From an uncultured Pirellula sp. (lineage in GTDB: Bacteria > Planctomycetota > Planctomycetia > Pirellulales > PNKZ01), in contig CAZWDN010000002.1 in the NCBI GenBank assembly GCA_964633125.1, positions 2,104 through 66,103 on the forward strand: a stretch of DNA of 64,000 nt, given 5' to 3'. This document shows, one piece after another, positions 11,165 through 60,144 of this stretch. The first letter of the stretch is position 1, and every line of letters starts with the position of its first letter. Both the position numbers and the translations under genes were made by a program. Under the pieces are notes generated by a model, which saw only the letters and a program-made list of their open reading frames with translations, did not search any database and was not told the origin of the DNA.

Positions 11165-11202
11165 TTTTCATATCATCCGAAAAACGAAACGATCCAATCT
11201 CG

Positions 11203-12399: not shown

Positions 12400-12558
12400 T
12401 CGCCGCGTGTCTGCGAGTGATGTCGGAGCGCACAAAACGCCCTCTGCCGGCAATGCTTCAACGTGCGAATCAGGGCGGCTCTCGGTTGGTCTTGGTGGCG
12501 TCGCCGGCATCGGCTATCAAAGTGTGCCCCGCGACCGTATTAAAACCGAGTTTTTGCC

Positions 12559-16202: not shown

Positions 16203-17622
16203 TTTCCCGTCGCCTTCTCGCCGCGGCTAAGTCCGCCACGATCAAATAGCGCGCGCCGCGCGCCGCGGCTTCAGTCACCTTTGCGGCGAACTCCGGATCG
16301 GCGGCATTCAGCGCCCATCCTCGGCGATCGCAATAGTACAACAGGTCGACGGACGAGCCGTGCAACGTCGCGATCGGTTGCCCAGTGGGTATCGCGGCTC
16401 GTGCGGCGGCGGCGGCAACCTCCACGGCCTCGTCTCCCGGCGGCGTCGCGAAGGCCGGGCCGATCGCCAACCGCAACGCCGCAAATAGTCCTACGCACGC
16501 AATACCGGCTCGCATCCAAGGCTTCGATAGATGACGCTGCAACTCGGCCCAGGCCGCGCCCGTCGCCAGGGCAACGCCGGGGAGCAGCACGACGTAGTAA
16601 TAGTTGGCGGCAAAAAACTTCAGCGGCAGCGCGATCAGCAAGCTGCCGAGCGCCGCGAGCAGCGTGATCAGCGGCAATTGTCCCCGCCGCCGGAAGGCTG
16701 CAATTCCGCCGAGCAATACACATGCTCCAATCGGCGTCAGCACATGCGTGGCGAAGTCCGTCGCCAGTCGCACATAGTAGCTTGCGGAGAAGAGCAGGGG
16801 ATGCGGAATGGCGTGGATCGTCGATCGTCCTAGCGGGTGATGCTCAAACGCCGGGCCGGTCGTCGATGGAATTTGCATCACCTTGGCATACCACCACGCC
16901 GTCGGGAGCAGAGCGACGACAAAGAGCGTAATTGCCGCCGCCGCAAGCCGGTTTTTCGCGCGAACCAACGACAGCCCGAGCGGTAGCAAAAGTACGAGCA
17001 TGTAAATCTTCGTAACCACGAGCACCGAGAACGCACATGCCGCCACGGCAACCCAGCCGAGCCGACGTTCGTCAAAGCCGACCTCCAACGCGTAAAGCGT
17101 GAGCAGCGTGAACATCGCCACCGACGCCTCCAGCATAAACGTCTGACCGTAGACAATGCTCACCGGCGAAAACGCCATGACGGCGCCGGCCGCAATTGCC
17201 GCGGTGCGGCCGAGCAGGCGTCGCCCCAGCAGCATCGTGAGCCACACGGCGCCGGCGGAGCAGGCAATCGAGACGCCGCGGCCCCAAGCGTCTAACGAAC
17301 CGCCGCAAAGTTTCCACCCTTGCCCGGCGACAAACGCCGCAGCCGGCCATTCCATGAGGTGCCAAGCCCGTTCGTCGCCGGCGGTGAGGTCGATCGTCGG
17401 GCACCAGATCGGCGCGCGATCGAGGGCCCAATTCCGCGCGATCATCGCATACACGGCGCTCTTCGTTGCGAAGTTTCCCACCAGCGGGCGATCGATGCCC
17501 GGCATGCGCACGGCGATGGTCGCTAGCACCAGCGCCGCTATCGCCCAACGGAACCGACGTTCGTCGCCAAGCGAGGCGGCTTGCGTGGTTTGCGCGGCGG
17601 CGACTTGAGCTGCTGCGGGCAT
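16051..17622 (-). CDS. GT-C family membrane glycosyltransferase (ArnT/PMT_2-like)
   Basis: The protein is polytopic over ~400 aa and then has a soluble C-terminal domain. The early segment (RMPGIDRPLVGNFATKSAVYAMIARNW) resembles GT39/83-type enzymes. I chose the start at the ATG complementary to 17620-17622; the ORF extends to 17736. Confidence 0.7.
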   Translation of the reverse strand: MPAAAQVAAAQTTQAASLGDERRFRWAIAALVLATIAVRMPGIDRPLVGNFATKSAVYAMIARNWALDRAPIWCPTIDLTAGDERAWHLMEWPAAAFVAGQGWKLCGGSLDAWGRGVSIACSAGAVWLTMLLGRRLLGRTAAIAAGAVMAFSPVSIVYGQTFMLEASVAMFTLLTLYALEVGFDERRLGWVAVAACAFSVLVVTKIYMLVLLLPLGLSLVRAKNRLAAAAITLFVVALLPTAWWYAKVMQIPSTTGPAFEHHPLGRSTIHAIPHPLLFSASYYVRLATDFATHVLTPIGACVLLGGIAAFRRRGQLPLITLLAALGSLLIALPLKFFAANYYYVVLLPGVALATGAAWAELQRHLSKPWMRAGIACVGLFAALRLAIGPAFATPPGDEAVEVAAAAARAAIPTGQPIATLHGSSVDLLYYCDRRGWALNAADPEFAAKVTEAAARGARYLIVADLAAARRRRETNAVLSDLPVVQAGSDWQLLSLESNSASTSDRAEVIREHSREVAVAKSKE

Positions 17623-17777
17623 GATTCCGAGAAATCGCCGGTGACGATGTAAAAAAGTGCGGGTTATGCCGGTTATCCGGCCGATCATAACGCTACGGAA
17701 TTTTTCGTCCCAGAGCGCTTCGTGCCGGCGTTGCATCGGCAGGCGACGAGCGTGACGTTGCCCGGAGACTGATTGTC

Positions 17778-28280: not shown

Positions 28281-30002
28281 CTATTTCGCGGCGGCGCCGG
28301 CCTTCGGCGGCGGAGTAAGTCCGTCGATCTTGAGCGTGCCGACGCGGTTCTCGTTCTTGAGATCGATCGTTCGAATCAGGTGATTGTTCGTATCGGCGAC
28401 ATATAGAACGTCGCCTCCGATCGAAATCCCCGCCGGTTCGTCAAACTGCGCCGGCGCGTCGGCGCTGCCGGGTTCGCGGGTTCCGACGACGGTCTTACAG
28501 GTAAACTTTGCGAGGTCGATCACCTTGATCTTGTTATTGTACGTGTCGGCGACATACAGCAGACCGTCGCGATAGGCGACGCCTAGCGGATGTTGCAGCA
28601 TGGCGACCGACTGCGGGCCGTCGCGATCGCCGAATTCAAATAAGCGATTGTTCGGCAGATGGGCGGTGCCGAGAGGAGTCTCAACTTGTTGTTTCACGTC
28701 GAACGGTACCGCGCGGATGGAGCTGCCTTCGCTATCGGCCACGAAGAGGCGCTTACCGTCGCTTGCCAAACCGCTCGGTTGCGCGAAGGAGCAAAAGCCT
28801 TCGACATACGGCTCATGCGGCAGCAAGCGACCGTCGACAATGTCTTCGCGACCGTTGCCGGCGTAGACCCCGATCTCAGTTTCGGTCAGCGGCATACGCC
28901 AAATCTGGTGTGGGCCGGCCATTGCGATATAGAGATCCTGCTCATGGACGAGAAGGTCCCAAGGGCTGTTGAGTTCCGTAAGGCGAGGTTTGCCGAAGAA
29001 CTTGCGCGGCATGCCGGTCGGCCAAGAGCGCGCCTGAACGCCGGTGCCGGCTACGATGCCCACCTGCTTCTTTTTCAAATCGACTTTGCGCAACATGTGG
29101 TTCTCGGTGTCGGCGACGTAGAGTACGTCGCCGACGAGCGCCATCCCTTGCGGATGGTTGAACGTAGTTTTGTTGTAATCGCCGCTGACTACGCCGATGG
29201 CACCGGTGCCGATGACCTCCTGTAGTTTGCCGGCGAGATCCGTGACGACGATGCGATTGTGATTGCTGTCGGCAATGAAAAGGCGATTGCCGGCGGCATC
29301 GGCCAAAACCTTGCCCGGAAAACGCAGCGGCGTGTCCTGAACCTTGGAATCTTCACGCACGAAGTCGAGCGGCTTCGGGTCGATCTTGCCCGCCGCTTTG
29401 TAGTAGGCGACCGCTTTCGACATCAACGGATTGAGTTGCTCAAACGTGAACTCCCCGCTGTGCTTGCCGACGATTCGGCCGTCGGGATCAATGAGCACGA
29501 GCGACGGCCAACTATTGATGAAGAACTCGTTCCAAATCGCCATTTTGTCGTCGTTGGCGACCGGATGTTCGATTTCGTAGCGGAGAATCGCTTCGGTGAT
29601 GTTCTTGGTGTCGCGCTCGTTATCGAATTTCGCCGAGTGTACGCCGATGACCACCAGTTCGTTCGGGTAGGCATGTTCGAGCTTTTTGAGTTCCGGAAGA
29701 ATGTGCATGCAGTTGATGCAGCAGTAGGTCCAGAAGTCTAAAAGTACAAACTTGCCGCGTAGTTGTTCCGGTTCAATCGGGCGGCCGGTGTTAAGCCATT
29801 GAATTTCCACGCCCGGCGTCGTCTGAAAGGCGGTGAGCACCTTGTTCTTGGAAATATCGCCGAAGGGATTTGTCGCGGCGGCTGCGGTTTTGGCCGCGGG
29901 CGCTTGTGCAGCCGCCATTCCCGTCGGCGAAACGATTCCGCAAACGAGCGCAATAAGTCCGACCGTAAAGCTCCCAGTCCGACGACGGCGACGACCCATC
30001 AT
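28281..30002 (-). CDS. Secreted thioredoxin-like domain + NHL-repeat beta-propeller protein
   Basis: It has a signal peptide (MMGRRRRRTGSFTVGLIALVCGIV), a redox motif FWTYCCINCMH, then repeated NHL-like units (LYVADTxNHxIR / LFIADSNHNRI). The start is set at the ATG complementary to 30000-30002. Confidence 0.8.
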   Translation of the reverse strand: MMGRRRRRTGSFTVGLIALVCGIVSPTGMAAAQAPAAKTAAAATNPFGDISKNKVLTAFQTTPGVEIQWLNTGRPIEPEQLRGKFVLLDFWTYCCINCMHILPELKKLEHAYPNELVVIGVHSAKFDNERDTKNITEAILRYEIEHPVANDDKMAIWNEFFINSWPSLVLIDPDGRIVGKHSGEFTFEQLNPLMSKAVAYYKAAGKIDPKPLDFVREDSKVQDTPLRFPGKVLADAAGNRLFIADSNHNRIVVTDLAGKLQEVIGTGAIGVVSGDYNKTTFNHPQGMALVGDVLYVADTENHMLRKVDLKKKQVGIVAGTGVQARSWPTGMPRKFFGKPRLTELNSPWDLLVHEQDLYIAMAGPHQIWRMPLTETEIGVYAGNGREDIVDGRLLPHEPYVEGFCSFAQPSGLASDGKRLFVADSEGSSIRAVPFDVKQQVETPLGTAHLPNNRLFEFGDRDGPQSVAMLQHPLGVAYRDGLLYVADTYNNKIKVIDLAKFTCKTVVGTREPGSADAPAQFDEPAGISIGGDVLYVADTNNHLIRTIDLKNENRVGTLKIDGLTPPPKAGAAAK

Positions 30003-30421
30003 GAAAGTGTCCTCCACGGCTATTGATGCCTGATGAACCAATATGGTAACGAATTTGGCAGCGCAAAAAAACGTCGCGGATGTCACAGCTTCGCTATCCT
30101 TCCTATTTGCGCAGCTGCATATTTGCGAGGCGCATGCGACCTTAACGACGGCGAAAGCATCGCGGATGAGGTGAACATGCGCGGCGGTGCGGGTCAAATT
30201 CGCTTTGTCGTTTTGGGCTGAAATCGCGATAATAGATAACGTGCGTGGAAATCCGCCGATTCAACGGCGACTACATTCGCACAGAATTTGCTCCGAAGAA
30301 AAGGGAAGGAAACGCGGCTGATCGGTGCGTAGGAACATTTCCGGCGTCGAGCCTGGGCTCGCCTTGGAAAAGCTTTGAACATCGACGGCGCCTCCACCCG
30401 TGGACGGCACCCGGGACATTG

Positions 30422-31519
30422 ATGCAGGCAGGACGCCTGAAGGATCGCCTTTACGCGACTGCTGTTCTTGTCCCTTTGATTCAGTGGGAGGTTTCCGTGT
30501 TTCGCAATCTTGCGATCGCTCTTTGTTGCGCGGCATCATTCAGCGCGCCGTTTGCCGCTTCGGCGCAGGCCGAAGATTGGGCTGCGAACATGTTCGACGA
30601 AGTCCGTCACGACTTCGGCAAAGTGGCCCGCGGCGGCAAGGCGGAGTTCTACTTTAAGTTTCGCAATCCGTATGTGGAAGACGTGCACGTGGCGTCGATC
30701 CGCTCGAGTTGCGGCTGCACGACTCCGCGGACCACGCAGGAGACGTTGAAGACCTACGAAGAAGCGGCGATCGTCGCTCATTTTAATACGGATACGTTTC
30801 TCGGCCAGCGTAGCGCCACGCTGACCGTGACGTTTGATAAGCCGTTCTACGCCGAAGTGCAGCTCCACGTGTCGGGCTATATTCGCAGCGATATCGTGCT
30901 CAACCCCGCGTCGGTGGATTTTGGAACGCTCGACGTCGGACAAACGGTGGAACGCACGATCGACCTGAGTTATGCGGGGCGAAGCGATTGGCAGATCACG
31001 GGAGTAAAAAGCGGTAGTTCGTTCGTCGAAGGGGATGTCGTCGAAACCGGCCGCTCCGGCAACCAAGTGAAGTACCAACTCAACGTGCGTCTCAAGCCGG
31101 GTGCGCCGACCGGGTTCTTGCGGGAGCAAGTGCTGTTGCAAACGACGGATGCTCGGGCGCCGGAACTACCGATTGACGTGGAAGGAAAAATTTCCGCCCC
31201 CCTGGCGGTGAGCCCAAGTTCGCTGTTCCTCGGCATCTTGCAGCCGGGGCAGAAGGTAACCAAGCAAATTGTCGTGCAGGGAAAGACGCCGTTTAAGATT
31301 ACGGGCGTCACGGCCTCGGAAAAATGCTTCGAGTTTAAAACCGGCGACACGGCGAAGACCGTGCATATCGTGCCGGTGGTTTTCACGGCCGGCCAACAAG
31401 GGGGTAACGTTAACTTTCGCATTCAGATCGAAACCGATCTCGGCGCGGAAGTGATGACGGAGATCTCGGCGTACGCCCAGATCAATCCGGCGACGACGGC
31501 TCAGTTGAATAGCCAATGA
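30422..31519 (+). CDS. DUF1573-domain secreted protein
   Basis: HDFGKVARGGKAEFYFKFRNPYVEDVHVASIRSSCGCTTP is the DUF1573 signature, preceded by a signal peptide (LAIALCCAASFSAPFAASAQA). An alternative GTG start at 30497 is preceded by GGGAGG. Confidence 0.75.
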   Translation: MQAGRLKDRLYATAVLVPLIQWEVSVFRNLAIALCCAASFSAPFAASAQAEDWAANMFDEVRHDFGKVARGGKAEFYFKFRNPYVEDVHVASIRSSCGCTTPRTTQETLKTYEEAAIVAHFNTDTFLGQRSATLTVTFDKPFYAEVQLHVSGYIRSDIVLNPASVDFGTLDVGQTVERTIDLSYAGRSDWQITGVKSGSSFVEGDVVETGRSGNQVKYQLNVRLKPGAPTGFLREQVLLQTTDARAPELPIDVEGKISAPLAVSPSSLFLGILQPGQKVTKQIVVQGKTPFKITGVTASEKCFEFKTGDTAKTVHIVPVVFTAGQQGGNVNFRIQIETDLGAEVMTEISAYAQINPATTAQLNSQ

Positions 31520-48684: not shown

Positions 48685-51600
48685 ATGGCCATCAATTCAG
48701 TTCCGACGACGCGACTCAGCAGTCCGTTCGTCACTCAACAGATTCTGTCGCAGATGTCGACGAATCAAGCGAATCTGTTTCGCGTACAGAGTCAGTTGAG
48801 TTCGGGTCGCCGGGTATTGTCGCCGAGCGACGACGCTCCGGCCGCATCGCGCGCGATGGCGTTGCAGTCGTTGTTGGAACGAAAAGGCATCATTCAAGAG
48901 AGCTACGCGACCAATCAGACTTACCTGAATTCCTCGGAAGCGGCTATCGGAAGCGTGGCGACGATGCTCGCCGACGCACGAGCGACGGCAATCAGCATGG
49001 TCGGCGACAACGTTAGTCCCTCCGAGCGCTCCGCCGCCGTGGCCTCCATCGACCTCGCCATCCAACAGTTACTCGATACCAGCAATCAAAAGTTCCGCGA
49101 TCGCTATCTTTTCGCCGGTTCGAAAACGTTGTCGTCTCCTTACGTGAAAACTCAAGACGGCGTGGTCTTTCAAGGCAATGAAGGAGAACTCGTCGCCTTC
49201 TCCGATATCGATCGGCTCTTTCAATCAAACGTGTCGGGAAGTCAAGTCTTCGGCGGGTTCTCGCAGCCCTCGGGCATCGCGACGGATTTGAATCCGGTCT
49301 TAACATGGGATACGCGACTTTCCGACTTGCGCGGCGGCGAGGGGATTCGCACCGGCAGCATATCGGTGAGCGACGGTACGAACGCGCGGACCATCAGCAT
49401 CGCCGGCGCAGCGACGATCGGCGATATCGCACGCTTGCTGGAAGCCAATCCGCCGGGGAATCGGGTCGTCACGGCCCGCGTGACGAGCCGCGGCTTGGAA
49501 GTGTCGCTCGACGGGGGCAATTTGCTGATCGGCGAAGTCGCCGGCGGCACGACTGCGGCGGAACTGGGCATCAAACGCACGATTCCCGCCGGGCCGGGAC
49601 CGGTCGTCGGAGAGGATCTCAATCCGCAGTTGAAACTGACCACCAACTTGACCGACGTGTTCGGCGGTCGTTCACGTACATACGTCAACGCAGACGGTAG
49701 TCGCAACGATCTCATCATCGAGGCCGTAAACTCCGGCGCACAGTACAATGATGTCCAGATCAAGTACGTCGATGACGATTGGTTCCAGTCGACGCCGGGT
49801 CTGACGCAGGGAAACGAAACCGCTCAGTATCTTACGACTGCCGCGGCGGCCGTGTCGTTTCTGAAGTTCCCCGGCCGGCCGGGCCTCGATAACGCGATTC
49901 AACTCACGGCGAATACTCCCGGTGCCGCGTACAACAACGTGACTACGTCGCTCAATGTCCGCGCCGTCGATGGTCTCGGTCCGCAAGTGACGTTCAATGC
50001 GACGACGAATCTCTATTCCATCTCCGTGGAAACCGGCACGACCGTCGGTTCGTTACTGACCTCGATCAACGGCGGAGCGGGGGCATTTAGCGCTTCATTA
50101 ACGCCGACCGGGAACGGGGCGTACGTGCTTACCGCGGCCGACAACAACGTGGCGGCTGGAAACACTTACCTCACCGGTTCCGACGCCGGCACGCTCGTGG
50201 TCCACATCGACCCGACGCATTCGACGGCCAACGACGTCATTGCTGCGATTGCCGCTGAGGGGACGTTCTCGGCTTCGCTCGACCCGAGCGAAGAACAGAA
50301 CGACGGCAACGGTACGGTAAAAGACTCTTTCATCGACGCGTTAGCGGTGGGGACCACTTACGGCGGTGCCGGCGAAAACCTTGATCTCGCAAGCGGCCTC
50401 CAGATCGTCAACGGTTCGAAGACCGTGACGATCGACTTCACCGGTGCAAAGACCGTGGAGGACATGCTCAACGTGATCAACGGTGCCGGCGCCAATGTGC
50501 TCGCCTCGCTAAATGCCGCAGGTACGGGTATCGAGATTCGCTCGCGATTGAGCGGCGCGACGTTTTCCGTCGGCGAGAACGGCGGACGATTGGCCACGCA
50601 GCTCGGCATACGCACCACGACCGAGAATACGGTGCTTACCTCGCTCAACGGCGGGCAGGGAGTGCGCCTTTCAACGACCTCGGACGACTTTTCCGTCACC
50701 AGTCGAAACGGCACGACTTACAACGTCAATCTTTCCCAAGGAAACGCCGCATCGGTTCGTGTTGCGGGGGCGGGGGCGGACAGCGGGCTACTCATCAGCC
50801 GAGTAGATCGCGGAATCGCGGGAAACCAGTTTAGCGTGCAGATCGTCGACTCGGGACTTGGCGGTGGTGATTCCGTCGCACTGGTGGGCAACACGCTCAG
50901 ATTTACGGTCGACGTTGCGGCCGGCTTCACTGCGCAGGAAGCACGGCAGTTACTCGCCAACGATGTGACGCTCGCAGGCCAGTTCAACGCCGTGCTCGAT
51001 AAGTCCATCGACACGACCAATGCCGGCACGGGCAATTTGGCGGCGACGGGCGTTCTTTCCTTTACTAACGGCGCCGGACCGGCGCAAACGATCGGCGACG
51101 TACTGGCGTTGATCAACAACAATCCCGCAAATCTTGCCGGCGACTCCCCGGTGACGGCACGACTCGTGCAAACGGGCAACGGCATCGAATTGATCAATGA
51201 CGGTCCGCCGAGCAGCGGTAGCCTGAGCATAACGCGCATCGGTACGAGTTCGGCGGCCGAAGATCTAGGCCTAGTTAATTCTGCCGACAGTGCGAGCGGC
51301 GTCGTGGTGGTGGGAAATACTGCGAAGTCGACGCTGACGCTCGCCGGAGCGGACAACGACTTGGTGATTTCGGCCCGTGGCAGCGGTGCAACGCTAAACG
51401 GAGTAACGATTCACTTTGCCGACGACGGCGTGCCGGGCAACAACTCCGTGGCCTACAATACGACGACCAGAACGTTGACGTTCGACGTCGATCCTGCGAC
51501 GACCACGGCCCAGGATATCGTCGATCTACTTGCCGGCGACCCGCGATTCGTCGCCAGTCTCGCAAGTTCCGACGGCGGAGCGGCGAACAGCGGTGCCGGA

Positions 51601-52017
51601 TTCCTCGGAACGCTTCCGGCCGATTCGACGCTCGCAGACGGCACTTCCGACGTTCTCACCGGTCGGGATGCCAACCCCCAACAGGTCGACGGCATTTTCG
51701 GCACGCTGATCGCGATGCGCGCCGCGATTTCCGCCAACGATACGGCGGCCTTGCAAAAGGCCGTCGCATCCCTAGATGCTAATTCCACCACCTTGAGCTT
51801 TGCCCGCGCCGAGCTCGGCACTCGCCTGCAGGGGCTCGATGTGCTCCAGGATCGAATGAGCTCCGAGACGATCTCGTTGAAGGGATCGCTGTCCGGTGAA
51901 ATTGACGTGGACTTTGTTTCCGCAGTTTCCGAGATGTCGACGCGTCAGGCGTCATTCGACGCGGCGCTGAAAGTCTCGTCGTTGATCGCAAAAACGACGT
52001 TGCTCGACTATCTCTAG
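48685..52017 (+). CDS. flgL: Flagellar hook-associated protein 3 FlgL, giant form (1110 aa)
   Basis: The N-terminus is collinear with FlgL (LSSGRRVLSPSDDAPAASRAMAL; RDRYLFAGSKT). A flagellin-type C-terminal helix is present (RAELGTRLQGLDVLQDRMSSETISL...). It sits after flgK. About 850 aa of repeat-containing insert lie between the conserved termini. Confidence 0.8.
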   Translation: MAINSVPTTRLSSPFVTQQILSQMSTNQANLFRVQSQLSSGRRVLSPSDDAPAASRAMALQSLLERKGIIQESYATNQTYLNSSEAAIGSVATMLADARATAISMVGDNVSPSERSAAVASIDLAIQQLLDTSNQKFRDRYLFAGSKTLSSPYVKTQDGVVFQGNEGELVAFSDIDRLFQSNVSGSQVFGGFSQPSGIATDLNPVLTWDTRLSDLRGGEGIRTGSISVSDGTNARTISIAGAATIGDIARLLEANPPGNRVVTARVTSRGLEVSLDGGNLLIGEVAGGTTAAELGIKRTIPAGPGPVVGEDLNPQLKLTTNLTDVFGGRSRTYVNADGSRNDLIIEAVNSGAQYNDVQIKYVDDDWFQSTPGLTQGNETAQYLTTAAAAVSFLKFPGRPGLDNAIQLTANTPGAAYNNVTTSLNVRAVDGLGPQVTFNATTNLYSISVETGTTVGSLLTSINGGAGAFSASLTPTGNGAYVLTAADNNVAAGNTYLTGSDAGTLVVHIDPTHSTANDVIAAIAAEGTFSASLDPSEEQNDGNGTVKDSFIDALAVGTTYGGAGENLDLASGLQIVNGSKTVTIDFTGAKTVEDMLNVINGAGANVLASLNAAGTGIEIRSRLSGATFSVGENGGRLATQLGIRTTTENTVLTSLNGGQGVRLSTTSDDFSVTSRNGTTYNVNLSQGNAASVRVAGAGADSGLLISRVDRGIAGNQFSVQIVDSGLGGGDSVALVGNTLRFTVDVAAGFTAQEARQLLANDVTLAGQFNAVLDKSIDTTNAGTGNLAATGVLSFTNGAGPAQTIGDVLALINNNPANLAGDSPVTARLVQTGNGIELINDGPPSSGSLSITRIGTSSAAEDLGLVNSADSASGVVVVGNTAKSTLTLAGADNDLVISARGSGATLNGVTIHFADDGVPGNNSVAYNTTTRTLTFDVDPATTTAQDIVDLLAGDPRFVASLASSDGGAANSGAGFLGTLPADSTLADGTSDVLTGRDANPQQVDGIFGTLIAMRAAISANDTAALQKAVASLDANSTTLSFARAELGTRLQGLDVLQDRMSSETISLKGSLSGEIDVDFVSAVSEMSTRQASFDAALKVSSLIAKTTLLDYL

Positions 52018-52230
52018 TCGTAATCAATCTCCGCGCATGTTGCGCGGCAAGTTCTACGGCCTGGGGAATGCATGACGAACGCGCGGTGTGGGAAAGGGAT
52101 TCCTCGCGTTCTAGCAGCTGCGGCAGTTGCAACGGTATTACTATCGAGGCGCGGCCAAGTCGGCCGAAACTAAGTTTGTAGAGACGTCGGCTCCGACGGC
52201 TTGTCGGTCACGCTCAAAAGGGTGCGCACC

Positions 52231-52671
52231 ATGCAGATTCGCACGACGCGATTCGGAACGCTCACGGTGGAAACAGACGACTTGCTGTTGTTTCCCGCCG
52301 GTTTACTCGGGCTCGAAGACTGCCGCCAATGGGTCTTTTTGACGGATGAGGCGAACGATGCGTTGGGGTGGCTGCAAAGCACCGCTCGGCCGGAACTGGC
52401 GTTTGCGGTCGTCAGTCCGCGACGCTTTGTGCCTGACTATCGCTTTCGCACTTTTCGCGAAGAGTTGGCGCCGTTGGAGCTGAATGGACTGGAAGATGCG
52501 CAGGTGCTCGTCACCGTGGCTCGCCACGACGGCGCCTTGACGCTCAACCTTCGCGCTCCAATCCTGATTAACGCCGTCACGCGAATGGGGCGTCAGATCG
52601 CCACGAACGACGATCAGCCGCTGCAATTTGTAATCCCGTCAACGCCCGCGCGATTGAAGAAGATCGCATAA
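52231..52671 (+). CDS. fliW: Flagellar assembly factor FliW
   Basis: MQIRTTRFGTLTVETDDLLLFPAGLLGLEDCRQWVFL ... LNLRAPILIN is typical of FliW. It lies directly upstream of csrA. Confidence 0.9.
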   Translation: MQIRTTRFGTLTVETDDLLLFPAGLLGLEDCRQWVFLTDEANDALGWLQSTARPELAFAVVSPRRFVPDYRFRTFREELAPLELNGLEDAQVLVTVARHDGALTLNLRAPILINAVTRMGRQIATNDDQPLQFVIPSTPARLKKIA

Positions 52672-52811
52672 CCGCGCTTTGGTTCGGCAGGTTGAATTCT
52701 CGTTGAGGAAACTGCCGAACACGACTTGTGCCACGCTTGCGTCGCCGGCAAAGTCTGCCGCGAGGGGATCGCGGGGCGTTCACTGGTTCGCAGCTTTGGA
52801 AGGAGCCGACG

Positions 52812-53039
52812 ATGCTTGTATTGTCGAGGCAACGCGACGAAAGCATCATTATCGGTGATAACATTGTTATCACCATCGTCGATATTCGCGGAGATAAGGT
52901 ACGTCTCGGCATCAACGCCCCGACGGAAATCCCCGTGCATCGGCAAGAGGTGTACGAAGCCATCCAACGCGAAAACCTGCGCGCCGGGCGTCTCGAGCCG
53001 AAGGATGCTCGTAACGTGGGCCGCGGCGAAGTGAAATAG
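52812..53039 (+). CDS. csrA: Carbon storage regulator CsrA (long, FliW-partnered type)
   Basis: [51 protein letters not shown]. It is 75 aa with a C-terminal extension, and GGAAGGAG lies upstream of the ATG. Confidence 0.95.
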
Positions 53040-53097
53040 CGCCAATTCGAGCGCTTCGGCACATTCCGTCGAGCCGGCGGATCGTCCCGGCCGCCGT

Positions 53098-53120
53098 GCG
53101 ACACATATATATTGTGTCGC
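53098..53120. other. 23-nt AT-centred palindrome downstream of csrA
   Basis: GCGACACA-TATATAT-TGTGTCGC has perfect 8-bp arms. It stands out against the GC-rich background and has no downstream T-run. Confidence 0.5.
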
Positions 53121-53602
53121 CGCGGCAATTCGGTAGCGGTGAGTCTGATGCCGGCCGTTCCCGTCACATCGCCGTCGCTCTGTTCCCCCGCGGCTCGCAA
53201 GTTTCCCCGTGCGGCTACCCGCAACATTCCGTCGGCGCCGGTCTTTGCGCGCTTGGGGATCTCCGAAGTTGCGAAGTGCGTAGCTTCGCTTCCGCTCCGT
53301 TAGTCTGTCGTTTATTCCGGCTATGACGGATGGGCGACAAGGCGAAGAAAAAGAAAATTACGAGCGATTAAATAACGACCTATGGTATCAGTGACGTGCA
53401 AGTCCCGAGTTAGGTAATCGCCGCAAATTGCGGCAACCGCGCCGAAAGACGTGCTACGTTTGACGAGATTGATTCCGTAAGGTTTGCGGCTTTGAGAGGT
53501 CGAGGCCGCGAGACGAATAGCAAGCCGGTCCGGGGAGTCCTCCCTGCATCCAGACGGGCTTGGCAGCATAACCGAGTCCTATTTTTTTGAGGGGTGAGTT
53601 AG

Positions 53603-56600
53603 ATGACCCGTATTAACACGAATTTGAGTTCGCTCACCGCTCAACACAGCTTGAAGCGGTCGAACTCCTCTTTGGAAACGTCGCTGACGCGGCTTTCGAC
53701 CGGCTTGCGCATCAACACGGGTAAGGATGACCCGGCCGGTTTGATCGCGAGCGAACAGCTCCGATCGGAAATCGTTTCCATCGGCCAATCGATCAAGAAC
53801 AGCGAACGGGCCGGCAATATTATTGCCACGGCCGACGCCGCCCTCGGCGAAGTAAGCTCGCTGCTTAACGACGTTCGCAGCTTGGTTCAATCGTCGGCCA
53901 ATAAGGGAGCCGTCTCGGCTTCGGAAATCGCCGCTAACCAAGTTCAAGTCGACAACGCGCTCGACGCCATCACGCGTATCGCTCAAACCACGGTCTTCGC
54001 CGGGCAGAAACTGCTCAACGGCTCGAAGAGCTTCTCGGTTAGCGGTACGCTGGGCTCGTTCAACAGCCCGACCGACATCACGATCAATTCGTTTGATCCG
54101 TCGCTGCACACGGCCAGCGCCAATAACGACGTCAGCCTCAGCGTGACGCAAGAAGCCACGAAGAAGAGCGTCAGCTTCAAGGGCACCGACTTCAACACGA
54201 GCACGTCGAACAGCTTGCTCGACCTTTCGGTCGGCACCTCGACACGCACCAACTCGACCCTCATCACCAACGACTTCAGCGTCGCCAATGCAACGAGCAG
54301 CTTGGGTTCGCTTTCGACCGGGTCGACGCGTTATACCCGCGTGATCGAAGGTGGCGCGACGGGCTTGGCCGATTTGGCCGGTGCGGGCTCGGAAACCATC
54401 ACGCTCGACGTCACCGGCAACCTCGGCACGGAATCGATCACTGTGAACGTCGCCGCGTTCAAGGCCGATACGCAGGTGCTCACCGACGCGATCAATGCGA
54501 CGTCGGCGACGACCGGCGTGTTCGCTTCGGGTTCGGGTGCCGGCGGTGACCTGACCTTGACGTCGACTCTCGTCGGTACGTCGGGTACTACGGCCACGCT
54601 TAACGCCACCGCGGGTCAAGGTGCTCAAGAAACGGTTCGTACTCTAGATCCGGGCGCCGGTTCGAGCTATAGCTCGTTGGCTGCCGCCGGTGCCGGTCAC
54701 GTCATTACGTTTGACCTGACGGGCGCCTTGGGTACCGCGACGGGTCTTTCCGTCAACTTGCAAGCTTTGAAGGCCGACAGCGATGCTTTGGTCGACGTCA
54801 TTAACGCCGCCTCGGGTACCACGGGCATCACCGCCACGGGTAGCGGCGTCGACGGCACGATCACCTTGACCAACTCCACCGGAGGCACCGGCGCGATTAC
54901 CTTCGCGAACGTTGCGGGCGGCGGCGGTGCGGTCGCCGGCGACGTCACGTTGTTCAATGCAGCCATCACTGCAGGAACGCAAACCCTGGGCGATACCGAC
55001 GTCACCGAGTTCAACGCTGCGATTACCGGCTCGGCAGTCACCGCCGCGACCAACGGCGCCCTCGGCACGAAGACGACCGTGTTCACGATCACCGGTAACA
55101 AGGGCTCGGCCGATATCTCGACCGCCGCTCTCGCCGCCGGCGGCCTCACCGGTAACGACGTGATCATCAACAACGACTTCAGCACCAACACGGGCATCAC
55201 GGCTTTCGCCGCCTTGATCAACTCGCGTACCGACACCACCGGCGTCGTCGCGAGCATCAACGGCTCGGGCAACTTGGTGCTCACGTCGCAAGGCGTCGGC
55301 AGCACGTCGCTGGCCAACATCACGGTCGGCACCGCGGGTGCGGATCAAACGTTGATCAACTCGGCTTCGACGAAGACCACGACGACGGGAACCGACGGTA
55401 CGTCGAACACGACGACTCTCGAACTCATCGGCGATCTCGGACGCTCGGTGATCACCATCAACAACGATGCCGTCATCAACGACAGCACCGTCCTGCGGAA
55501 CGCGATCAACGCCGTCACGTCGCAAACCGGCATCACCGCCACCGGCGGCGGATTCGGAACCGACGTCAGCCTGAGTGCTTCGAAGTACGGGGCCGCGGGC
55601 GTCGTCACCGTCAACGCTCTCGCCGCTTCCAACTCCGCCGACATCACGCTGCTGAATGCGGCCGGCACGCGGGTTTCGGTCGACGGCCAGAATGCCACGG
55701 GAACGATTAGCCACGGCAACGGCAGCGGCAACTTCACGGCCGCCGGCGAACGACTGGCCTACACCGACTCGTCGATCAGCCTCGAAGCCACGATTGATCC
55801 CACGCTCACGCCGAGCGTTCGGGCGTCGCGGACCATTCAGGATACGACGGCCGGAGCGGGCGGTTTGGACAGCCTCACCGGCGCCGGAACCGATACCATC
55901 AGCTTCACGCTGACCGGCGTCGTCAACGGTGCTCAAGTTTCGACCTCGATCAGCAACGTCAACGTTGCCGCTCTCAAGTCGGACAGCCGCTACCTCGCCG
56001 ACCTCATCAACGCCACGAGCTCCAGCTCCGGCGTGCGAGCCTCGACGACGGGCGCCTCGGGCAACATCGTGCTGGAATCGACGACGAACGGTTCGGCCGG
56101 TCAAGTGGCGATTACCGCCACCGCCGCGACGCAAGCCGGCGACGTGGCGATCTTCAACAACGCCGACACGTTCACGAGCATCGTCGCGGGAGCCAACCCC
56201 GCCGTGTCGAACAACTTCGACGTCACCGGCGGCGCCTTGTTCCAAATCGGCCCCTCGGTGAACTACGCGAACCAGGTCAACATCAACATCACCTCGCTCG
56301 ACTTGTCGACGCTGGGTCGTGACTACACGACGACGGGAAACAAGGGCCTCTCCGCCTTGAAGACCGGCGGCAGCGACTCGCTCGACAAGGCCGACCTCAC
56401 CGATGCGGCGGCCATCATCGAGCAAGCGATCAGCCAGGTCGCTACCCTTCGCGGTAAGTTGGGCGCCATCCAGAAGAACGCCATCGAAAGCAATATCCGC
56501 AGCTTGCAAACGTCGCTCGAACAAGTGACGGCCGCGGAAAGCAGCATTCGTGACGCCGACTTCGCGGTGGAAACGGCCAACCTCACCCGCTCGCAGATTC

Positions 56601-56677
56601 TCGTGCAAGCCGGTACCAACGTCTTGGCCTTGGCCAACCAAGCTCCGCAGAACGTTCTGTCGCTGCTCGGTCGGTAA
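53603..56677 (+). CDS. fliC: Flagellin, giant form (1024 aa) with repeat-built central region
   Basis: The N-terminus reads MTRINTNLSSLTAQHSLKRSNSSLETSLTRLSTGLRINTGKDDPAGLIASEQL. The C-terminus reads LRGKLGAIQKNAIESNIRSLQTSLEQVTAAESSIRDADFAVETANLTRSQILVQAGTNVLALANQAPQNVLSLL. GAGGGG lies 8 nt upstream of the ATG, and a strong terminator follows the gene. Confidence 0.92.
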   Translation: MTRINTNLSSLTAQHSLKRSNSSLETSLTRLSTGLRINTGKDDPAGLIASEQLRSEIVSIGQSIKNSERAGNIIATADAALGEVSSLLNDVRSLVQSSANKGAVSASEIAANQVQVDNALDAITRIAQTTVFAGQKLLNGSKSFSVSGTLGSFNSPTDITINSFDPSLHTASANNDVSLSVTQEATKKSVSFKGTDFNTSTSNSLLDLSVGTSTRTNSTLITNDFSVANATSSLGSLSTGSTRYTRVIEGGATGLADLAGAGSETITLDVTGNLGTESITVNVAAFKADTQVLTDAINATSATTGVFASGSGAGGDLTLTSTLVGTSGTTATLNATAGQGAQETVRTLDPGAGSSYSSLAAAGAGHVITFDLTGALGTATGLSVNLQALKADSDALVDVINAASGTTGITATGSGVDGTITLTNSTGGTGAITFANVAGGGGAVAGDVTLFNAAITAGTQTLGDTDVTEFNAAITGSAVTAATNGALGTKTTVFTITGNKGSADISTAALAAGGLTGNDVIINNDFSTNTGITAFAALINSRTDTTGVVASINGSGNLVLTSQGVGSTSLANITVGTAGADQTLINSASTKTTTTGTDGTSNTTTLELIGDLGRSVITINNDAVINDSTVLRNAINAVTSQTGITATGGGFGTDVSLSASKYGAAGVVTVNALAASNSADITLLNAAGTRVSVDGQNATGTISHGNGSGNFTAAGERLAYTDSSISLEATIDPTLTPSVRASRTIQDTTAGAGGLDSLTGAGTDTISFTLTGVVNGAQVSTSISNVNVAALKSDSRYLADLINATSSSSGVRASTTGASGNIVLESTTNGSAGQVAITATAATQAGDVAIFNNADTFTSIVAGANPAVSNNFDVTGGALFQIGPSVNYANQVNINITSLDLSTLGRDYTTTGNKGLSALKTGGSDSLDKADLTDAAAIIEQAISQVATLRGKLGAIQKNAIESNIRSLQTSLEQVTAAESSIRDADFAVETANLTRSQILVQAGTNVLALANQAPQNVLSLLGR

Positions 56678-56708
56678 GCCTCGCAGGTTTGAATTCGTAT
56701 CTAACCAC

Positions 56709-56746
56709 GGTAGGCGAGGTACTCCACCTCGCCTACCGTTTTTTTA
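56709..56746 (+). terminator. Rho-independent terminator of fliC
   Basis: A perfect 12-bp stem (GGTAGGCGAGGT-ACTCC-ACCTCGCCTACC) is followed by G + T7 + A. Confidence 0.85.
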
Positions 56747-56774: not shown

Positions 56775-56880
56775 CGGATAAGGAGACTTTGCCGTTCGGC
56801 TTGCCGGCCGGCAGTGCTTGCAGGCTTTCGGTCTGCGGGCGTTCGCTCTGTTCGTACTACGTGTTCGCGGAACCTTGCAT

Positions 56881-59610
56881 ATGGCGACCGTCGCCGCAGG
56901 CACCGGGCTTGTCTCGGGCCTTAATTATACGCAGATCGCCGACTCGCTCATCACGCTGGATAAGGCTCCGATCGATCAGCTCACGACTGATCTCAATAAT
57001 CGCAAAGGCGCTCAGGCCGCGTATACCGGCCTCTCCGCAACGCTGCTCTCGCTTTCGCTCTCCGTGTCGACGCTCGGTCGGTCCAGTACGCTCGATTCGC
57101 GCGTTGCCGGCAGTTCCAACGCTTCGCTCGTAAGCGCCAGGGCCGATACGACGGCAGTTCTCGGCTCCTACAATTTCCGGCCCGTTCGGTTGGCGCAAAC
57201 TCAACGCTTTACCTCCGCGGGCTTTGCGGATCTCGGCACGGCGAAGGTCGGCGCGGGAACCATCTCGATCAAGCGCGGCGGCTTTGTCGCCGCCGACACG
57301 TCGCTCGATGCGCTCAACGGCGGCGCCGGCGTCGCTCGCGGCAAGATTCGCATCACCGATCGCAGCGGCGTGGCGACCGTCGTCGATCTGAGCGGCACGC
57401 GCACCGTCGGCGACGTGCTCAAGACCATCAATGATAACGGCATCGCCGCCGTGACCGCCTCCGTCCGCGGTGACGCGATCGTCCTCACCGATCAATCGGG
57501 TTCGACCGCGAGCGAACTAAAGGTTCAAGAACTCGGCGGCGGCCGCACCGCCGCTGACCTCGGGATTCTGGGATCGGTTGCGGCGAATGAAAAAGTCGGT
57601 ACCGACGTCGTCAAGCTCGGAAGCGATTTGCGTCTCTCGCATCTGAACGACGGACTGGGCGTGCGCACCAACGGCACACAGGACGACCTTCGTATCACGC
57701 TCAAAGACGGCGGTACGATCGACGTCAAGCTTGCATCCGCGAAGACGATTCAAGACGTCGTAACGGCCATCAACGGCGACAGTGAAAATAGCAACCGAGT
57801 CACCGCTTCGATCTCCGGCGGCGGCGATGCGCTTGTACTTACGGATACCACGGGCGGCGGCGGAACGCTCGCGGTAGCGGCCCTCAACGGCAGCAAAGCG
57901 GCCGCGGATCTCGGCATTCTCGGTTCCGAGCAATCCGGCGGCGTGCTCACGGGCAAGCGAGTTCTGGCCGGGCTCAATTCCGTCCTTCTGAAGAATCTTA
58001 ACGGCGGCTCCGGCATCTCGATACCCGGCCAAGTACAACTCACCGATCGCAGCGGAGCCACCGCCGCGATCGACCTCTCCGGCGCCGGAAGCCTCGGCGA
58101 AGTGATCGACGCGATTAATGCCGCCGGACTCGGCATCAAAGCCGCTCTCAACGACCAAGGGCACGGCCTCACGCTCACCGACACGACCGGTTCGTCGGCC
58201 TCGAATCTCATCGTCGCCGACCTTTCGGGCGGCACGACCGCCGCGGATCTGAACATCGACGGGAGCGTGGCGGCGACGACGATCAAATCGGGCGATTTGC
58301 ACCGCGCCTACATCAACGAAAATACGTCGCTCGGCAGCCTCGGCAACGGGGCGGGCATTCGCGACGGGCAGATCAAGATCAAAGACAAAGCCGGCAATTC
58401 GACCGTGCTGATCATCAACGGCGACAACTACAAGACTCTCGGCGACTTGATCACCGGTATTAATGCGGGCAGTGCGCAAGTCACGGCATCAATCAATGCC
58501 ACGGGCGACGGCTTGCTGATTTCCGACATCTCCGGCGGAGCCGGCTCGTTGACGGTCGAAGACATCGGCTCAAGCAAGTCTGCCGCCGATCTACGCATCG
58601 CCGGAACCGGCTCCCCGACGATCGACGGCGCTTTCGTCGATCGCGTCGAAATCGATGCCGACGACACGCTTAACGACGTGATCGCGAAAATCGGCTCCAG
58701 CGGCGCTCCGATTAACGCGTCGTTTTTCAATGTCGGCGGCACCGACGGCTTCAAACTCCTGGTCAGTTCGAAAAAGGGGGGCGAAGTCGGTCGCCTACTC
58801 ATCGATTCCGGTACGACCGGTTTGAATCTTAATCAGTCCCAAGAAGGGCTCGACGCCGTCGTTCAACTCAGCGGTAACGGCTCCGCGCCCGTCGTGTTTG
58901 CCTCGGCGACTAACTCCTTCAGCTCCGTCGTCGCCGGATTGTCCGTCGATATCACCGGCGTTTCGGCGTCATCCGTAACGATTAACGTCGAACAAAGTTC
59001 CGATGCAATCGTCGATTCCGTGACTGCGTTCGTGAAGAGCTTCAACACCATCAGCGATTCGCTTGCCAAGCAGACGAAGTTCGACACGACCACCAACACC
59101 TCGGCAATTCTGCAAGGAGATCAAACGGCGATCGCCTTGCAAAGTGCGTTGCTGTCGTTCGTGTCCAAGCGGTACGGCAACGGCGGCAACGCATTTCGCA
59201 CGTTTAGCCAACTCGGCATCACGCTCTCCGGCGGTCAACTTACCGTCGATGAGAGCAAGCTTCGCGCGCAAGTTTCCGCCGATCCGGCCGCCGTCAAAGA
59301 CTTCTTCGGCGCGACGAATGTCGGCGCCTCGGCGCAAATCGGCAAAGTCATCAAAGGCTACACCGACGCCGCCGTGGGCACGCTCTTCAATAAGATCGAC
59401 TCGCTCGATAGACAACAAGAATCGCTCCAAGCTCGAATCGACAAGATCACCAAGTCCGTGGAAGCCAAACGCAATCGTATTCTCAACCAGTTTCTCGTGC
59501 TTGAGAAAACGCTGGCGACCTTGCAATCGCAACAAACGTCGCTCAACAGTCTTGCCTCTCTCGCCGCTTCGACGTCCTCGAGTTCCAGTTCGTCGAAATC
59601 CGGCAACTAA
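56881..59610 (+). CDS. fliD: Flagellar filament cap protein FliD (HAP2), enlarged (909 aa)
   Basis: The N-terminus reads MATVAAGTGLVSGLNYTQIADSLITLDKAPIDQLTTDL. A C-terminal FliD domain is present (FNTISDSLAKQTKFD...AILQGDQTAIALQS...LSQLGITLSGGQLTVDESKL...). Four tandem ~110-aa repeats lie in between, and the protein ends in a poly-Ser tail. Confidence 0.88.
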   Translation: MATVAAGTGLVSGLNYTQIADSLITLDKAPIDQLTTDLNNRKGAQAAYTGLSATLLSLSLSVSTLGRSSTLDSRVAGSSNASLVSARADTTAVLGSYNFRPVRLAQTQRFTSAGFADLGTAKVGAGTISIKRGGFVAADTSLDALNGGAGVARGKIRITDRSGVATVVDLSGTRTVGDVLKTINDNGIAAVTASVRGDAIVLTDQSGSTASELKVQELGGGRTAADLGILGSVAANEKVGTDVVKLGSDLRLSHLNDGLGVRTNGTQDDLRITLKDGGTIDVKLASAKTIQDVVTAINGDSENSNRVTASISGGGDALVLTDTTGGGGTLAVAALNGSKAAADLGILGSEQSGGVLTGKRVLAGLNSVLLKNLNGGSGISIPGQVQLTDRSGATAAIDLSGAGSLGEVIDAINAAGLGIKAALNDQGHGLTLTDTTGSSASNLIVADLSGGTTAADLNIDGSVAATTIKSGDLHRAYINENTSLGSLGNGAGIRDGQIKIKDKAGNSTVLIINGDNYKTLGDLITGINAGSAQVTASINATGDGLLISDISGGAGSLTVEDIGSSKSAADLRIAGTGSPTIDGAFVDRVEIDADDTLNDVIAKIGSSGAPINASFFNVGGTDGFKLLVSSKKGGEVGRLLIDSGTTGLNLNQSQEGLDAVVQLSGNGSAPVVFASATNSFSSVVAGLSVDITGVSASSVTINVEQSSDAIVDSVTAFVKSFNTISDSLAKQTKFDTTTNTSAILQGDQTAIALQSALLSFVSKRYGNGGNAFRTFSQLGITLSGGQLTVDESKLRAQVSADPAAVKDFFGATNVGASAQIGKVIKGYTDAAVGTLFNKIDSLDRQQESLQARIDKITKSVEAKRNRILNQFLVLEKTLATLQSQQTSLNSLASLAASTSSSSSSSKSGN

Positions 59611-59646: not shown

Positions 59647-60144
59647 ATGAACACCAATAACCAATACTTCGCCGATCAAGTTCTCACCGCCTCGCCGCAA
59701 CGCCTGCAACTGATGCTCATCGAAGCGGCGCTGCGTGCCGCGCGACGCGGCGAAGAACTCATTGCGTCCGGCTCTCCGGTTGCCGCAAGCGCCGAACTCG
59801 CCCAAGCCGAAGCGATCATGTCCGATCTCATCGGCTCGCTTCGTAAAGATCTTGCTCCCGAACTCGTGGCGCAAGTCGCCGTGGTCTACGGCTTCATTCT
59901 CAAGTCGATTACGGAAACGCACCTGTCCGACGATCTCGCGCCGCTTCGTGCCGCGATTCGCGTGTTGGAGATCGAGAATGAAACGTGGCGCCTCGTCTGC
60001 TCGCGCTCGTCATCGACAGATGCGGAAACCCCGGCGTCGTCGAACCCGCCTGCACCGCACTCCAACTACTCCGCCCCCGCGCCGCAAGCCGCCTTCGATA
60101 GCCTCTCCTCCGGCTACACGGGCGGCTTCACGTTTGAAGCATAG
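59647..60144 (+). CDS. fliS: Flagellar export chaperone FliS (with Pro-rich C-terminal extension)
   Basis: YFADQVLTASPQRLQLMLIEAALRAARRG ... VYGFILKSI. It sits after fliD. Confidence 0.9.
   Translation: MNTNNQYFADQVLTASPQRLQLMLIEAALRAARRGEELIASGSPVAASAELAQAEAIMSDLIGSLRKDLAPELVAQVAVVYGFILKSITETHLSDDLAPLRAAIRVLEIENETWRLVCSRSSSTDAETPASSNPPAPHSNYSAPAPQAAFDSLSSGYTGGFTFEA

Follow-up and report, generated by a model that had tools for sequence, protein, structure and literature searches.

Flagellin is among the costliest of bacterial proteins. Why do some lineages triple its size, and what fills the added length? The question is raised here by fliC (53603..56677, + strand, stop codon included), a single ORF that encodes a protein of 1024 aa within the window, as we call the whole 64-kb stretch of DNA that was analyzed. 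The source belongs to the Pirellulales (Planctomycetota) and is known solely through metagenome-assembled genomes. We think it likely that the gene encodes a filament flagellin of this planctomycete and that the outer part of the protein consists largely of five Flagellin_IN β-domains.

A giant flagellin gene and its neighbors

Both ends of the protein are those of a flagellin. Pfam places Flagellin_N (PF00669) on aa 4-142 (E = 2e-26; 93.1 bits; cutoff, 26.6) and Flagellin_C (PF00700) on aa 938-1022 (E = 9.5e-21), and also recognizes Flagellin_IN. Flagellins in the PDB match at both termini, with E-values down to 3.6e-35. The first-pass annotation had described the protein as a giant flagellin whose termini are of the ordinary D0/D1 type, and the presence of Flagellin_N and Flagellin_C on one ORF bears this out. 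NCBIfam flagellin models reach 175.8 bits (1e-51) on FliC, which falls under every one of their equivalog cutoffs, as expected of a divergent phylum.

The predicted polypeptide has a mass of ~100 kDa and is rich in Thr (14.7%), Ala (13.5%), Ser (11.8%) and Gly (11.0%). A composition count found neither Cys nor Trp among the 1024 residues. The first-pass annotation was correct on this point but overstated its interest, since flagellins, such as Salmonella FliC, normally lack both. It was also right to set the protein apart from enzymatic flagellins. With no HExxH motif, only four His residues and no peptidase match in Pfam, a reading of FliC as a flagellinolysin is ruled out.

The gene order is flgK-flgL-fliW-csrA-fliC-fliD-fliS, with flgL through fliS all on the + strand. 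Upstream of fliC are flgL (48685..52017), encoding a hook-filament junction protein of 1110 aa (TIGR02550, 180.7 bits against a cutoff of 127.2; Pfam Flagellin_N and Flagellin_IN), and the pair fliW (52201-52671; Pfam FliW, 9.6e-29) and csrA (52728-53039; Pfam CsrA, 3.9e-25), which together form a flagellin-sensing translational control pair. An intrinsic-terminator-like hairpin (56707..56739, + strand), with a 14-bp stem and then a T run, lies 30 nt past the fliC stop. It is followed by fliD (56818..59610), which encodes a filament cap protein of 930 aa (Pfam FliD_N, FliD_C and two Flagellin_IN), and fliS (59647..60144; Pfam FliS, 2.4e-18), which encodes the flagellin export chaperone. Scanning upstream of fliC yielded no sigma-70 promoter, and a weak sigma-28-like string can be seen there by eye. 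No convincing GGA-type CsrA sites were found at the Shine-Dalgarno sequence.

Could FliC be a hook-filament junction protein, or another hook-associated protein, instead of a filament subunit? The FlgL model TIGR02550 does match FliC weakly, and hook-associated proteins typically have IN motifs; however, the match, at 50.6 bits (1.8e-13), is far under the cutoff of that model and far under the best flagellin score. A separate, bona fide flgL lies upstream together with flgK, and fliC, which has its own terminator and is flanked by fliW-csrA and fliD-fliS, occupies the classic position of a flagellin gene. We regard a hook-associated role as highly improbable, and an FlgL-like identity is ruled out by the NCBIfam scores, the separate flgL and the position of the gene. 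As a filament flagellin, FliC could still be a minor component, since other, shorter flagellin genes are conceivable elsewhere in the genome.

Five copies of a known module

The first-pass annotation had reported five divergent units in the middle of the protein. All five proved real, although the boundaries given omitted the N-terminal strand of each; using a broader profile together with the model of the structure, we refined the unit to ~100 aa. The composition of FliC is strongly biased, and we considered whether the apparent repeats merely reflect low complexity in Thr/Ser/Ala/Gly and not domain duplication. BLASTP of FliC on itself, with composition correction on, returned the identity match only, a result that would suit a compositional origin. 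Repeat detection was switched from this self-comparison to shuffle-calibrated Smith-Waterman and HMM tests. With 500 shuffles, Smith-Waterman comparisons among R1, R2, R4 and R5 gave z = 7.3-16.7; pairs with R3 reached only 2.7-4.7, which would again be compatible with an artefact. In leave-one-out HMM tests, however, each of the five units scored above all 1000 shuffles of itself, with 72 bits for R1, 53 for R5 and 11.6 for R3, the weakest, for which the shuffle maximum was 5.4. Composition-preserving shuffles thus never equaled the observed scores. The unit HMM finds exactly five copies on FliC and no sixth. The independent, curated PF07196 matches five of the five units, secondary structure recurs unit by unit in a model with pLDDT ~90, and the units are positionally orthologous across relatives. 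We give a compositional origin almost no credence: the shuffles, the leave-one-out HMM, the PF07196 matches and the model refute it.

In the DNA, TRF found no ~300-nt period and a direct-repeat scan found no periodic array; the longest direct repeat spans 57 nt, its copies being 61-70% identical. The earlier view that the repeats are divergent at this level and reflect an old expansion therefore stands. What had been overlooked is that the unit is not anonymous. It is the known Flagellin_IN (PF07196) module. On whole FliC, PF07196 scores 33 bits against a gathering score of 22.7 and covers five stretches. When the units are scanned alone, R3 passes with 29.7 bits, whereas R1, R2 and R5 (19.7-21.4 bits) and R4 (15.0 bits) fall under the gathering score, with E-values of 2.9e-4 to 0.028. 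Each unit contains one Ile-Asn core (AINAT, VINAA, LINSR, AINAV and LINAT). The motif is common to FliC and to the adjoining giant FlgL and FliD, the latter having at least four IN-motif repeats with cores at aa 204, 318, 433 and 548. FliC is a real flagellin, and since its middle is five tandem copies of a catalogued domain, we place it with the known giant flagellins, among which it is large but not unusual. It represents no new kind of system: the IN module is already known, and so are giant flagellins and flagellins with repeats.

How are the units arranged within the 1024 aa? The N-terminal D0/D1 helices (aa 1-142, 53603..54028; all segments are on the + strand) coincide with Flagellin_N, are modelled as helices at aa 2-37, 44-99 and 106-129, and have a mean identity of 92% across 18 orthologs. 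They lead into a proximal β-rich segment (aa 143-240, 54029..54322) with five β strands in the model and no match to the repeat HMM. R1 (aa 241-340, 54323..54622; profile, 3.6e-36; PF07196 alone, E = 2.9e-4), with its Ile-Asn pair at aa 297-298, and R2 (aa 342-438, 54626..54916; profile, 1.9e-23; PF07196, E = 1e-3) are both Flagellin_IN modules. They are followed by a spacer (aa 439-466, 54917..55000; DNA repeat family D2) which, from the motif and the model helices, holds the first of two copies of the D-V-T-x-F-N-A-A linker helix motif. This motif is found at aa 447 and 466, where the model has helices (aa 445-457 and 466-475, respectively); its second copy (aa 466-473) begins on the last residue of the spacer and continues into R3. 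R3 (aa 467-579, 55001..55339; profile, 7.6e-15; PF07196, E = 7.6e-7) carries an insertion of ~15 aa and is the most diverged unit, yet it is the best Pfam IN match of the five.

R4 (aa 583-677, 55349..55633) is assigned by profile (4e-22), PF07196 (E = 0.028) and orthology. Between it and R5 lies a non-repeat, β-rich insert (aa 678-737, 55634..55813) that has five strands in the model, lacks any repeat match and varies among orthologs (mean identity 65%). R5 (aa 738-845, 55814..56137; profile, 1.8e-27; PF07196, E = 4.6e-4) is again a Flagellin_IN module. A proximal C-side β segment (aa 846-932, 56138..56398; model strands at aa 857-894) returns to the core and to the C-terminal D1/D0 helix (aa 933-1024, 56399..56674; model helix aa 933-1013), which contains Flagellin_C. 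The two proximal segments, aa 143-240 and aa 846-932, probably pair to form a base domain through which the chain goes out and comes back.

Fold of the unit and likeness to other flagellar proteins

Compared with PDB sequences, a profile of the five units gave a marginal match, to H. pylori FlaB 9yh1 (E = 0.32), so the fold could not be identified from sequence alone and a structure search was needed. In an AF2 model of whole FliC, pLDDT is ~90 in the outer region and the pattern of secondary structure recurs; R1 modelled alone reached a pLDDT of 82 and a pTM of 0.78. In the predicted unit, a strand and a hairpin precede three short helices, which carry the Ile-Asn pair, and three more strands follow. 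In Foldseek searches, the best matches to the single-unit model were the D2/D3 domains of FliD from E. coli (5h5v/5h5w), Salmonella (5h5t), Serratia (5xlj/5xlk) and Campylobacter (6sih). For these the probability was ~1 and TM 0.5-0.57, with modest E-values (4.6e-3 to 5e-2). Also among the best matches are D2 of S. maltophilia flagellin (9atl), P. aeruginosa FliC (4nx9) and, with a probability of 0.72-0.77, Sphingomonas p5 (2zbi, 3k8v); TM over the single-unit fold matches is 0.42-0.57. We have moderate confidence that the modelled unit shares its fold with the head domains D2/D3 of FliD and with D2 β-domains of several flagellins.

The relationship to FliD extends to this locus, whose own FliD carries IN repeats homologous to the FliC units, although the sequence identity between the FliC unit and FliD D2/D3 is only ~20%. 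In FliD, the domains form a pentameric or hexameric cap head, whereas in FliC several copies are built into the subunit of the filament. Among Flagellin_IN proteins, Sphingomonas A1 p5 and FlaA/FlaB of H. pylori and Campylobacter share this Pfam motif and its central Ile-Asn pair, likewise place a β-domain between the D1 helices, and match the FliC unit in fold; the weak sequence match to H. pylori FlaB 9yh1 falls on two IN motifs. FliC differs in that its units, at ~100 aa, have extra strands. Flagellins and hook-associated proteins have been reviewed as carrying one to five IN motifs each, which puts the five copies of FliC at the top of the reported range (PMC9751261).

The best fold match to the whole model is Geovibrio thiophilus flagellin 9au6 (792 residues in the PDB chain; E = 2.9e-15), at 17% sequence identity. 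Among the four β-rich outer domains of this flagellin, D4 is a relative of FliD D2, and D5 arose by duplication of D4 (Fields et al., 2024, PMC11532411). Its domains are heterogeneous, with D5 inserted in a loop of D4, whereas FliC has five homologous units in tandem. Thomson et al. (2018, PMC6248924) define giant flagellins as those of >1000 aa, and FliC, at 1024 aa with canonical termini, falls within this class. These proteins produce thick filaments, and the same paper names Planctomycetes (Blastopirellula marina) as one of the phyla with giant flagellins (PMC6248924). The DE flagellins of Oceanospirillales (Bermanella, Oleibacter) are likewise >1000 aa, have been shown to make thick filaments and, like FliC, owe their extra length to tandem duplication of an outer-domain unit (PMC6248924). 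However, they contain two DE copies and a DX insert where FliC has five IN units, and the likeness noted here is one of architecture. The only link between DE-region flagellins and FliC is the fold match to D2/D3 of P. aeruginosa FliC (4nx9, 8erm). We know of no flagellin structure from the Planctomycetota, and a literature search found no paper dedicated to a planctomycete flagellin or filament.

Possible roles of the outer domains and their variation among relatives

If FliC is a filament flagellin with five Flagellin_IN domains, how would the filament be built? As in all flagellins, the termini (aa 1-142 and 933-1024) would polymerize into the filament core. The chain would go out and return, with aa 143-240 and 846-932 as its proximal β-rich base and, between these segments, five autonomous domains of ~100 aa. 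Short D-V-T-x-F-N-A-A helices would connect most units, and the 60-aa β insert would separate R4 and R5. Arranged like beads, the domains would surround the core with a deep layer of protein, and the filament would be thick as a result. We infer the thickness of the filament, the packing of the domains and any mechanical or adhesive benefit. The module was probably multiplied long ago through whole-domain duplication, and relatives keep orthologous positions while differing by the gain or loss of whole units.

A different possibility is that the IN β-domains are adhesive or polysaccharide-binding modules with which the filament attaches swarmer cells to algal or particle surfaces. Sphingomonas A1 flagellin p5, which the unit matches in fold (2zbi and 3k8v), binds alginate and has a β-domain with one Flagellin_IN motif; however, the review that reports this regards the IN motif as of no relevance for folding and draws no connection between it and binding (PMC9751261). 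Mineral adhesion has been proposed for the Geovibrio outer domains (PMC11532411), and the outer region of FliC is net acidic (57 D+E versus 27 K+R). The presence of the module in FliD and FlgL as well suggests that it is a structural building block of general use, and we consider attachment of this kind quite unlikely.

It is also conceivable, though unlikely, that the main role of the outer domains is to carry heavy O- or N-glycosylation and that a glycan coat, and not the protein domains, sets the surface properties of the filament. Bacterial flagellins are commonly glycosylated, and the outer region of FliC is 17.7% Thr and 11% Ser, although richness in Ser, Thr, Ala and Gly is usual in flagellin outer domains. 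The first-pass annotation had found heavy glycosylation plausible from the density of both Ser/Thr and N-x-S/T triplets. The first of these holds but the second does not: the 20 N-x-S/T sequons observed compare with 19.8 +/- 3.7 in composition-preserving shuffles, and the single D/E-x-N-x-S/T site with 1.5 expected. With sequons at the level of chance, Ser/Thr richness is what is left of the case. A glycan-synthesis cluster (GT2, GT4, GT9, two PMT_2-type GT-C, RmlC and sugar epimerases) is present at 2.6-26 kb, but it lies at least 27 kb away and resembles envelope or LPS biosynthesis. Consistent with the earlier observation for adjacent genes, no Maf (PF01973) or pseudaminic/legionaminic acid genes were found in any large ORF among the ~55 scanned across the window. 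As judged from sequence, glycosylation of FliC is neither supported nor excluded.

All FliC relatives come from Pirellulales or other Planctomycetota; they are 564-1255 aa long and carry 2 to 6-7 positionally orthologous units. Length follows unit number, from 634 aa with 2 units to 1255 aa with 6, the 1255-aa relative giving 7 matched stretches in one scan. Locus L003, from a nanopore MAG, was left out of the copy-number comparison because frameshifts split its flagellin. R4 is kept in all 22 of the relatives typed, 2-unit forms included, and R2 is missing from the 4-unit relatives; orthologs with five units number 19. The array differs between relatives by whole units, which is mildly new. 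Where R2 is present, orthologs divide into two allele classes, with identities to this FliC of either 70-88% or 40-52%, between flanks that are mostly 70-96% identical. R2 (aa ~340-460) is a sharply bounded hypervariable slot, also mildly new; it evolves fast and is probably the most exposed unit.

More broadly, and only tentatively, Pirellulales may have expanded one small IN/FliD-D2-like module over the full set of their extracellular axial proteins (FlgL, 1110 aa; FliC, 1024 aa; FliD, 930 aa), producing an unusually thick, protein-sheathed filament whose outer layers are tuned by domain gain and loss and in which R2 is an exchangeable surface cassette. If so, the cassette would serve in antigenic, phage-receptor or grazing evasion, and the relatives would provide a modular "domain-number series" relating outer-domain mass to filament mechanics. 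In this clean natural series, a single autonomous domain is present 2 to 6-7 times, one copy being hypervariable, on a flagellin that is otherwise conserved. It could be used as a model of how the number of outer domains changes the diameter and stiffness of the filament, its recognition of surfaces and swimming through water that is viscous or rich in particles, in a phylum that is environmentally abundant and structurally unexplored.

A giant flagellin with five tandem Flagellin_IN domains

The single ORF at window positions 53603–56677 (+ strand), which encodes a 1024-aa protein (FliC), is a bona fide flagellin gene in its classic position. This assignment follows from Pfam matches to Flagellin_N (aa 4–142, E = 2e-26) and Flagellin_C (aa 938–1022, E = 9.5e-21), the matching of solved flagellins by both termini (best E = 3.6e-35), NCBIfam scores of up to 175.8 bits for flagellin models versus 50.6 bits for FlgL, a strong terminator-like hairpin 3′ of the gene (56707–56739), and placement in a late flagellar cluster ordered flgF, flgG, flgA, flgH, flgI, rod-binding protein, flgN, flgK, flgL, fliW, csrA, fliC, fliD, fliS. 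FliC lacks Cys and Trp, as flagellins normally do. It contains no HExxH motif, as had been noted in the first-pass annotation.

The non-coding stretch before fliC (53040–53602, ~560 nt) is unusually long. A terminator-like hairpin and T-run (53556–53579) directly precede the GAGGGG Shine-Dalgarno sequence, and no sigma-70 promoter was found upstream of fliC. This stretch may act as a regulatory leader, possibly as a target of CsrA or attenuation.

The same annotation described five old, divergent repeats in the outer region, an observation that is real and, apart from a claim about sequons discussed below, statistically sound; its interpretation is broadly right, though incomplete. The repeats are present at the residues that it gave. 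A broader profile extends them to ~100-aa units that span aa 241–340 (R1), 342–438 (R2), 467–579 (R3), 583–677 (R4) and 738–845 (R5); unit HMMs find these five copies and no more. Smith-Waterman comparison against 500 composition-preserving shuffles gave z = 7.3–16.7 for pairs within R1, R2, R4 and R5, and z = 2.7–4.7 for pairs involving R3. When, to avoid circularity, an HMM built from four units was used to score the fifth, all five (72, 49, 11.6, 36.5 and 53 bits for R1–R5) beat every one of 1000 shuffles of the unit being scored (maxima 5–10 bits). A search of the fliC DNA for a periodic array found none, and direct repeats reach at most 57 nt, with 61–70% identity; the duplication is therefore old, as the annotation had stated.

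What are these units? Scanned singly, all five match PF07196, the "Flagellin hook IN motif" (E = 2.9e-4, 1e-3, 7.6e-7, 0.028 and 4.6e-4 for R1–R5), with R3 passing the gathering score; a scan of whole FliC also yields five stretches, and the diagnostic Ile-Asn pair is present in every unit. In an AlphaFold2 model of FliC (58 homologs as input; mean pLDDT 83, ~90 over the outer region), each unit has the same order of elements: a strand, a beta-hairpin, three short helices and three strands. Since one unit modeled alone (aa 240–350) also folds (pLDDT 82, pTM 0.78), the units are predicted to be autonomous, continuous domains rather than interleaved halves. Foldseek matches of this single-unit model in the PDB are nearly all flagellar proteins (probability ~1 for the top matches, TM 0.5–0.57, E = 5e-3 to 0.3), including FliD D2-D3 head domains (5h5v, 5h5w, 5h5t, 5xlj, 6sih), D2 of an S. 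maltophilia flagellin (9atl), P. aeruginosa FliC (4nx9) and Sphingomonas p5 (2zbi, 3k8v). The whole model best matches a large flagellin from Geovibrio thiophilus (9au6; chain of 792 residues; E = 2.9e-15). FliC belongs to the giant flagellins of planctomycetes, and its outer region consists of five tandem Flagellin_IN/FliD-D2-like domains.

After most units comes a short second motif, D-[VI]-[TA]-x-[FL]-N-[AN]-A, which occurs four times (54941–54964, 54998–55021, 55640–55663 and 56141–56164) and is also detectable as a DNA repeat family (D2). It is predicted to be helical and apparently links adjacent domains.

These findings fit an established picture. Thomson et al. (2018; PMC6248924) defined giant flagellins as >1000 aa; that study demonstrated that they make thick filaments, placed Planctomycetes among the phyla that have them and described tandem outer-domain repeats. 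FliC likewise exceeds 1000 aa and has tandem units in its outer region. In the Geovibrio flagellin, which FliC resembles in its multiplied FliD-D2-like outer domain as well as in overall fold, this domain is duplicated, and outer domains were proposed to be recruited from other flagellar genes (Fields et al., 2024; PMC11532411). Our modest additions are a copy-number series of whole units, a single hypervariable slot and the parallel expansion of the module in two neighbors, FlgL and FliD.

Copy number and variation among relatives

Among 8000 candidates scored in the protein database, 1953 FliC homologs were found at E ≤ 1e-10; those that are named all belong to Pirellulales, Thermoguttaceae or other Planctomycetota, and the genome-collection loci with relatives are Planctomycetota MAGs. 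Protein length rises with unit number, from 634 aa (two units) through ~750 (three), ~900 (four) and ~1020 (five) to ~1255 aa (six, with seven matched stretches in an exhaustive profile scan). By best-match typing, units are positionally orthologous: two-unit forms are R1-R4, three-unit forms mostly R1-R3-R4 and four-unit forms mostly R1-R3-R4-R5, without R2, while six-unit forms carry extra R3-like copies. In one relative, the orthologous flagellin (10001–13069 of locus L003, from a nanopore-assembled Pirellulales MAG) is split over three frames (613 aa plus fragments), most likely through frameshift errors in the assembly and not because the gene is a pseudogene.

When 1.84 billion representatives were searched exhaustively with a profile, only 179 proteins scored at E ≤ 1e-3. 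As most of these have 2–7 stretches and several of 1000–1345 aa carry 4–6 Pfam IN repeats, five copies per protein is high but not exceptional. The repeats are strong in these longer proteins (P0123–P0130), in most of which neither Flagellin_N nor Flagellin_C was detectable, and a few proteins of 3–4.8 kaa have 16–28 partial matches; both groups are candidate FlgL- or FlgK-like, or non-flagellar, proteins.

Across 18 five-unit orthologs (74–91% identical overall), mean identity is 92% in the N-terminal D0/D1 and 89% in the C-terminal D1/D0 regions, 84% in R1 and R4, 81% in R3, 76% in R5, 65% in the 60-aa insert between R4 and R5 (aa 678–737) and 58% in R2. R2 is bimodal, with two allele types that are 70–88% or only 40–52% identical to that of the window. 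The variable region (54626–55000, the R2 slot and following spacer) is sharply bounded near aa 340 and 460, with flanks mostly at 85–95%; across it, identity falls to ~41% in orthologs that reach 84% over the whole protein. The hypervariable region thus amounts, in essence, to one repeat slot. The pattern suggests diversifying selection or cassette exchange, and R2 may be the most exposed unit.

Neighboring genes and glycosylation

The IN module also occurs in two unusually large neighbors: FlgL, the hook-filament junction protein (48685–52017; 1110 aa), and FliD, the filament cap (56818–59610; 930 aa), the latter with at least four clear cores (FliD aa 204, 318, 433 and 548). The module has thus expanded across the three distal axial proteins of this organism.

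Heavy glycosylation had been considered plausible from the density of Ser, Thr and N-x-S/T triplets. The outer region is indeed rich in Thr (17.7%) and Ser (11%), but the 20 N-x-S/T sequons are at chance level (19.8 ± 3.7 in shuffles), as is the bacterial extended sequon (one observed, 1.5 expected). None of ~55 ORFs scanned in the window is a Maf or nonulosonic-acid gene, in agreement with the earlier report of none adjacent. Glycosylation of FliC is neither supported nor excluded.

A large glycan/envelope cluster occupies ~1300–26400. Its genes, which at 2.6–26 kb include rhamnose-pathway genes, encode several GT2 enzymes, one GT4, a GT9 heptosyltransferase-like enzyme, a polysaccharide deacetylase, two PMT_2-type GT-C enzymes (9209–11164 and 16051–17736), CDP-alcohol phosphatidyltransferase domains, NDP-sugar dehydratases/epimerases, a nucleotidyltransferase and RmlC. 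The cluster is distant from fliC and looks like one for envelope biosynthesis. Finally, an NHL-repeat thioredoxin-like protein (28281–30197) adjoins an ORF with a DUF1573/HYDIN-VesB-like Ig domain (30245–31519); both are typical planctomycete surface proteins, unrelated to the flagellin.
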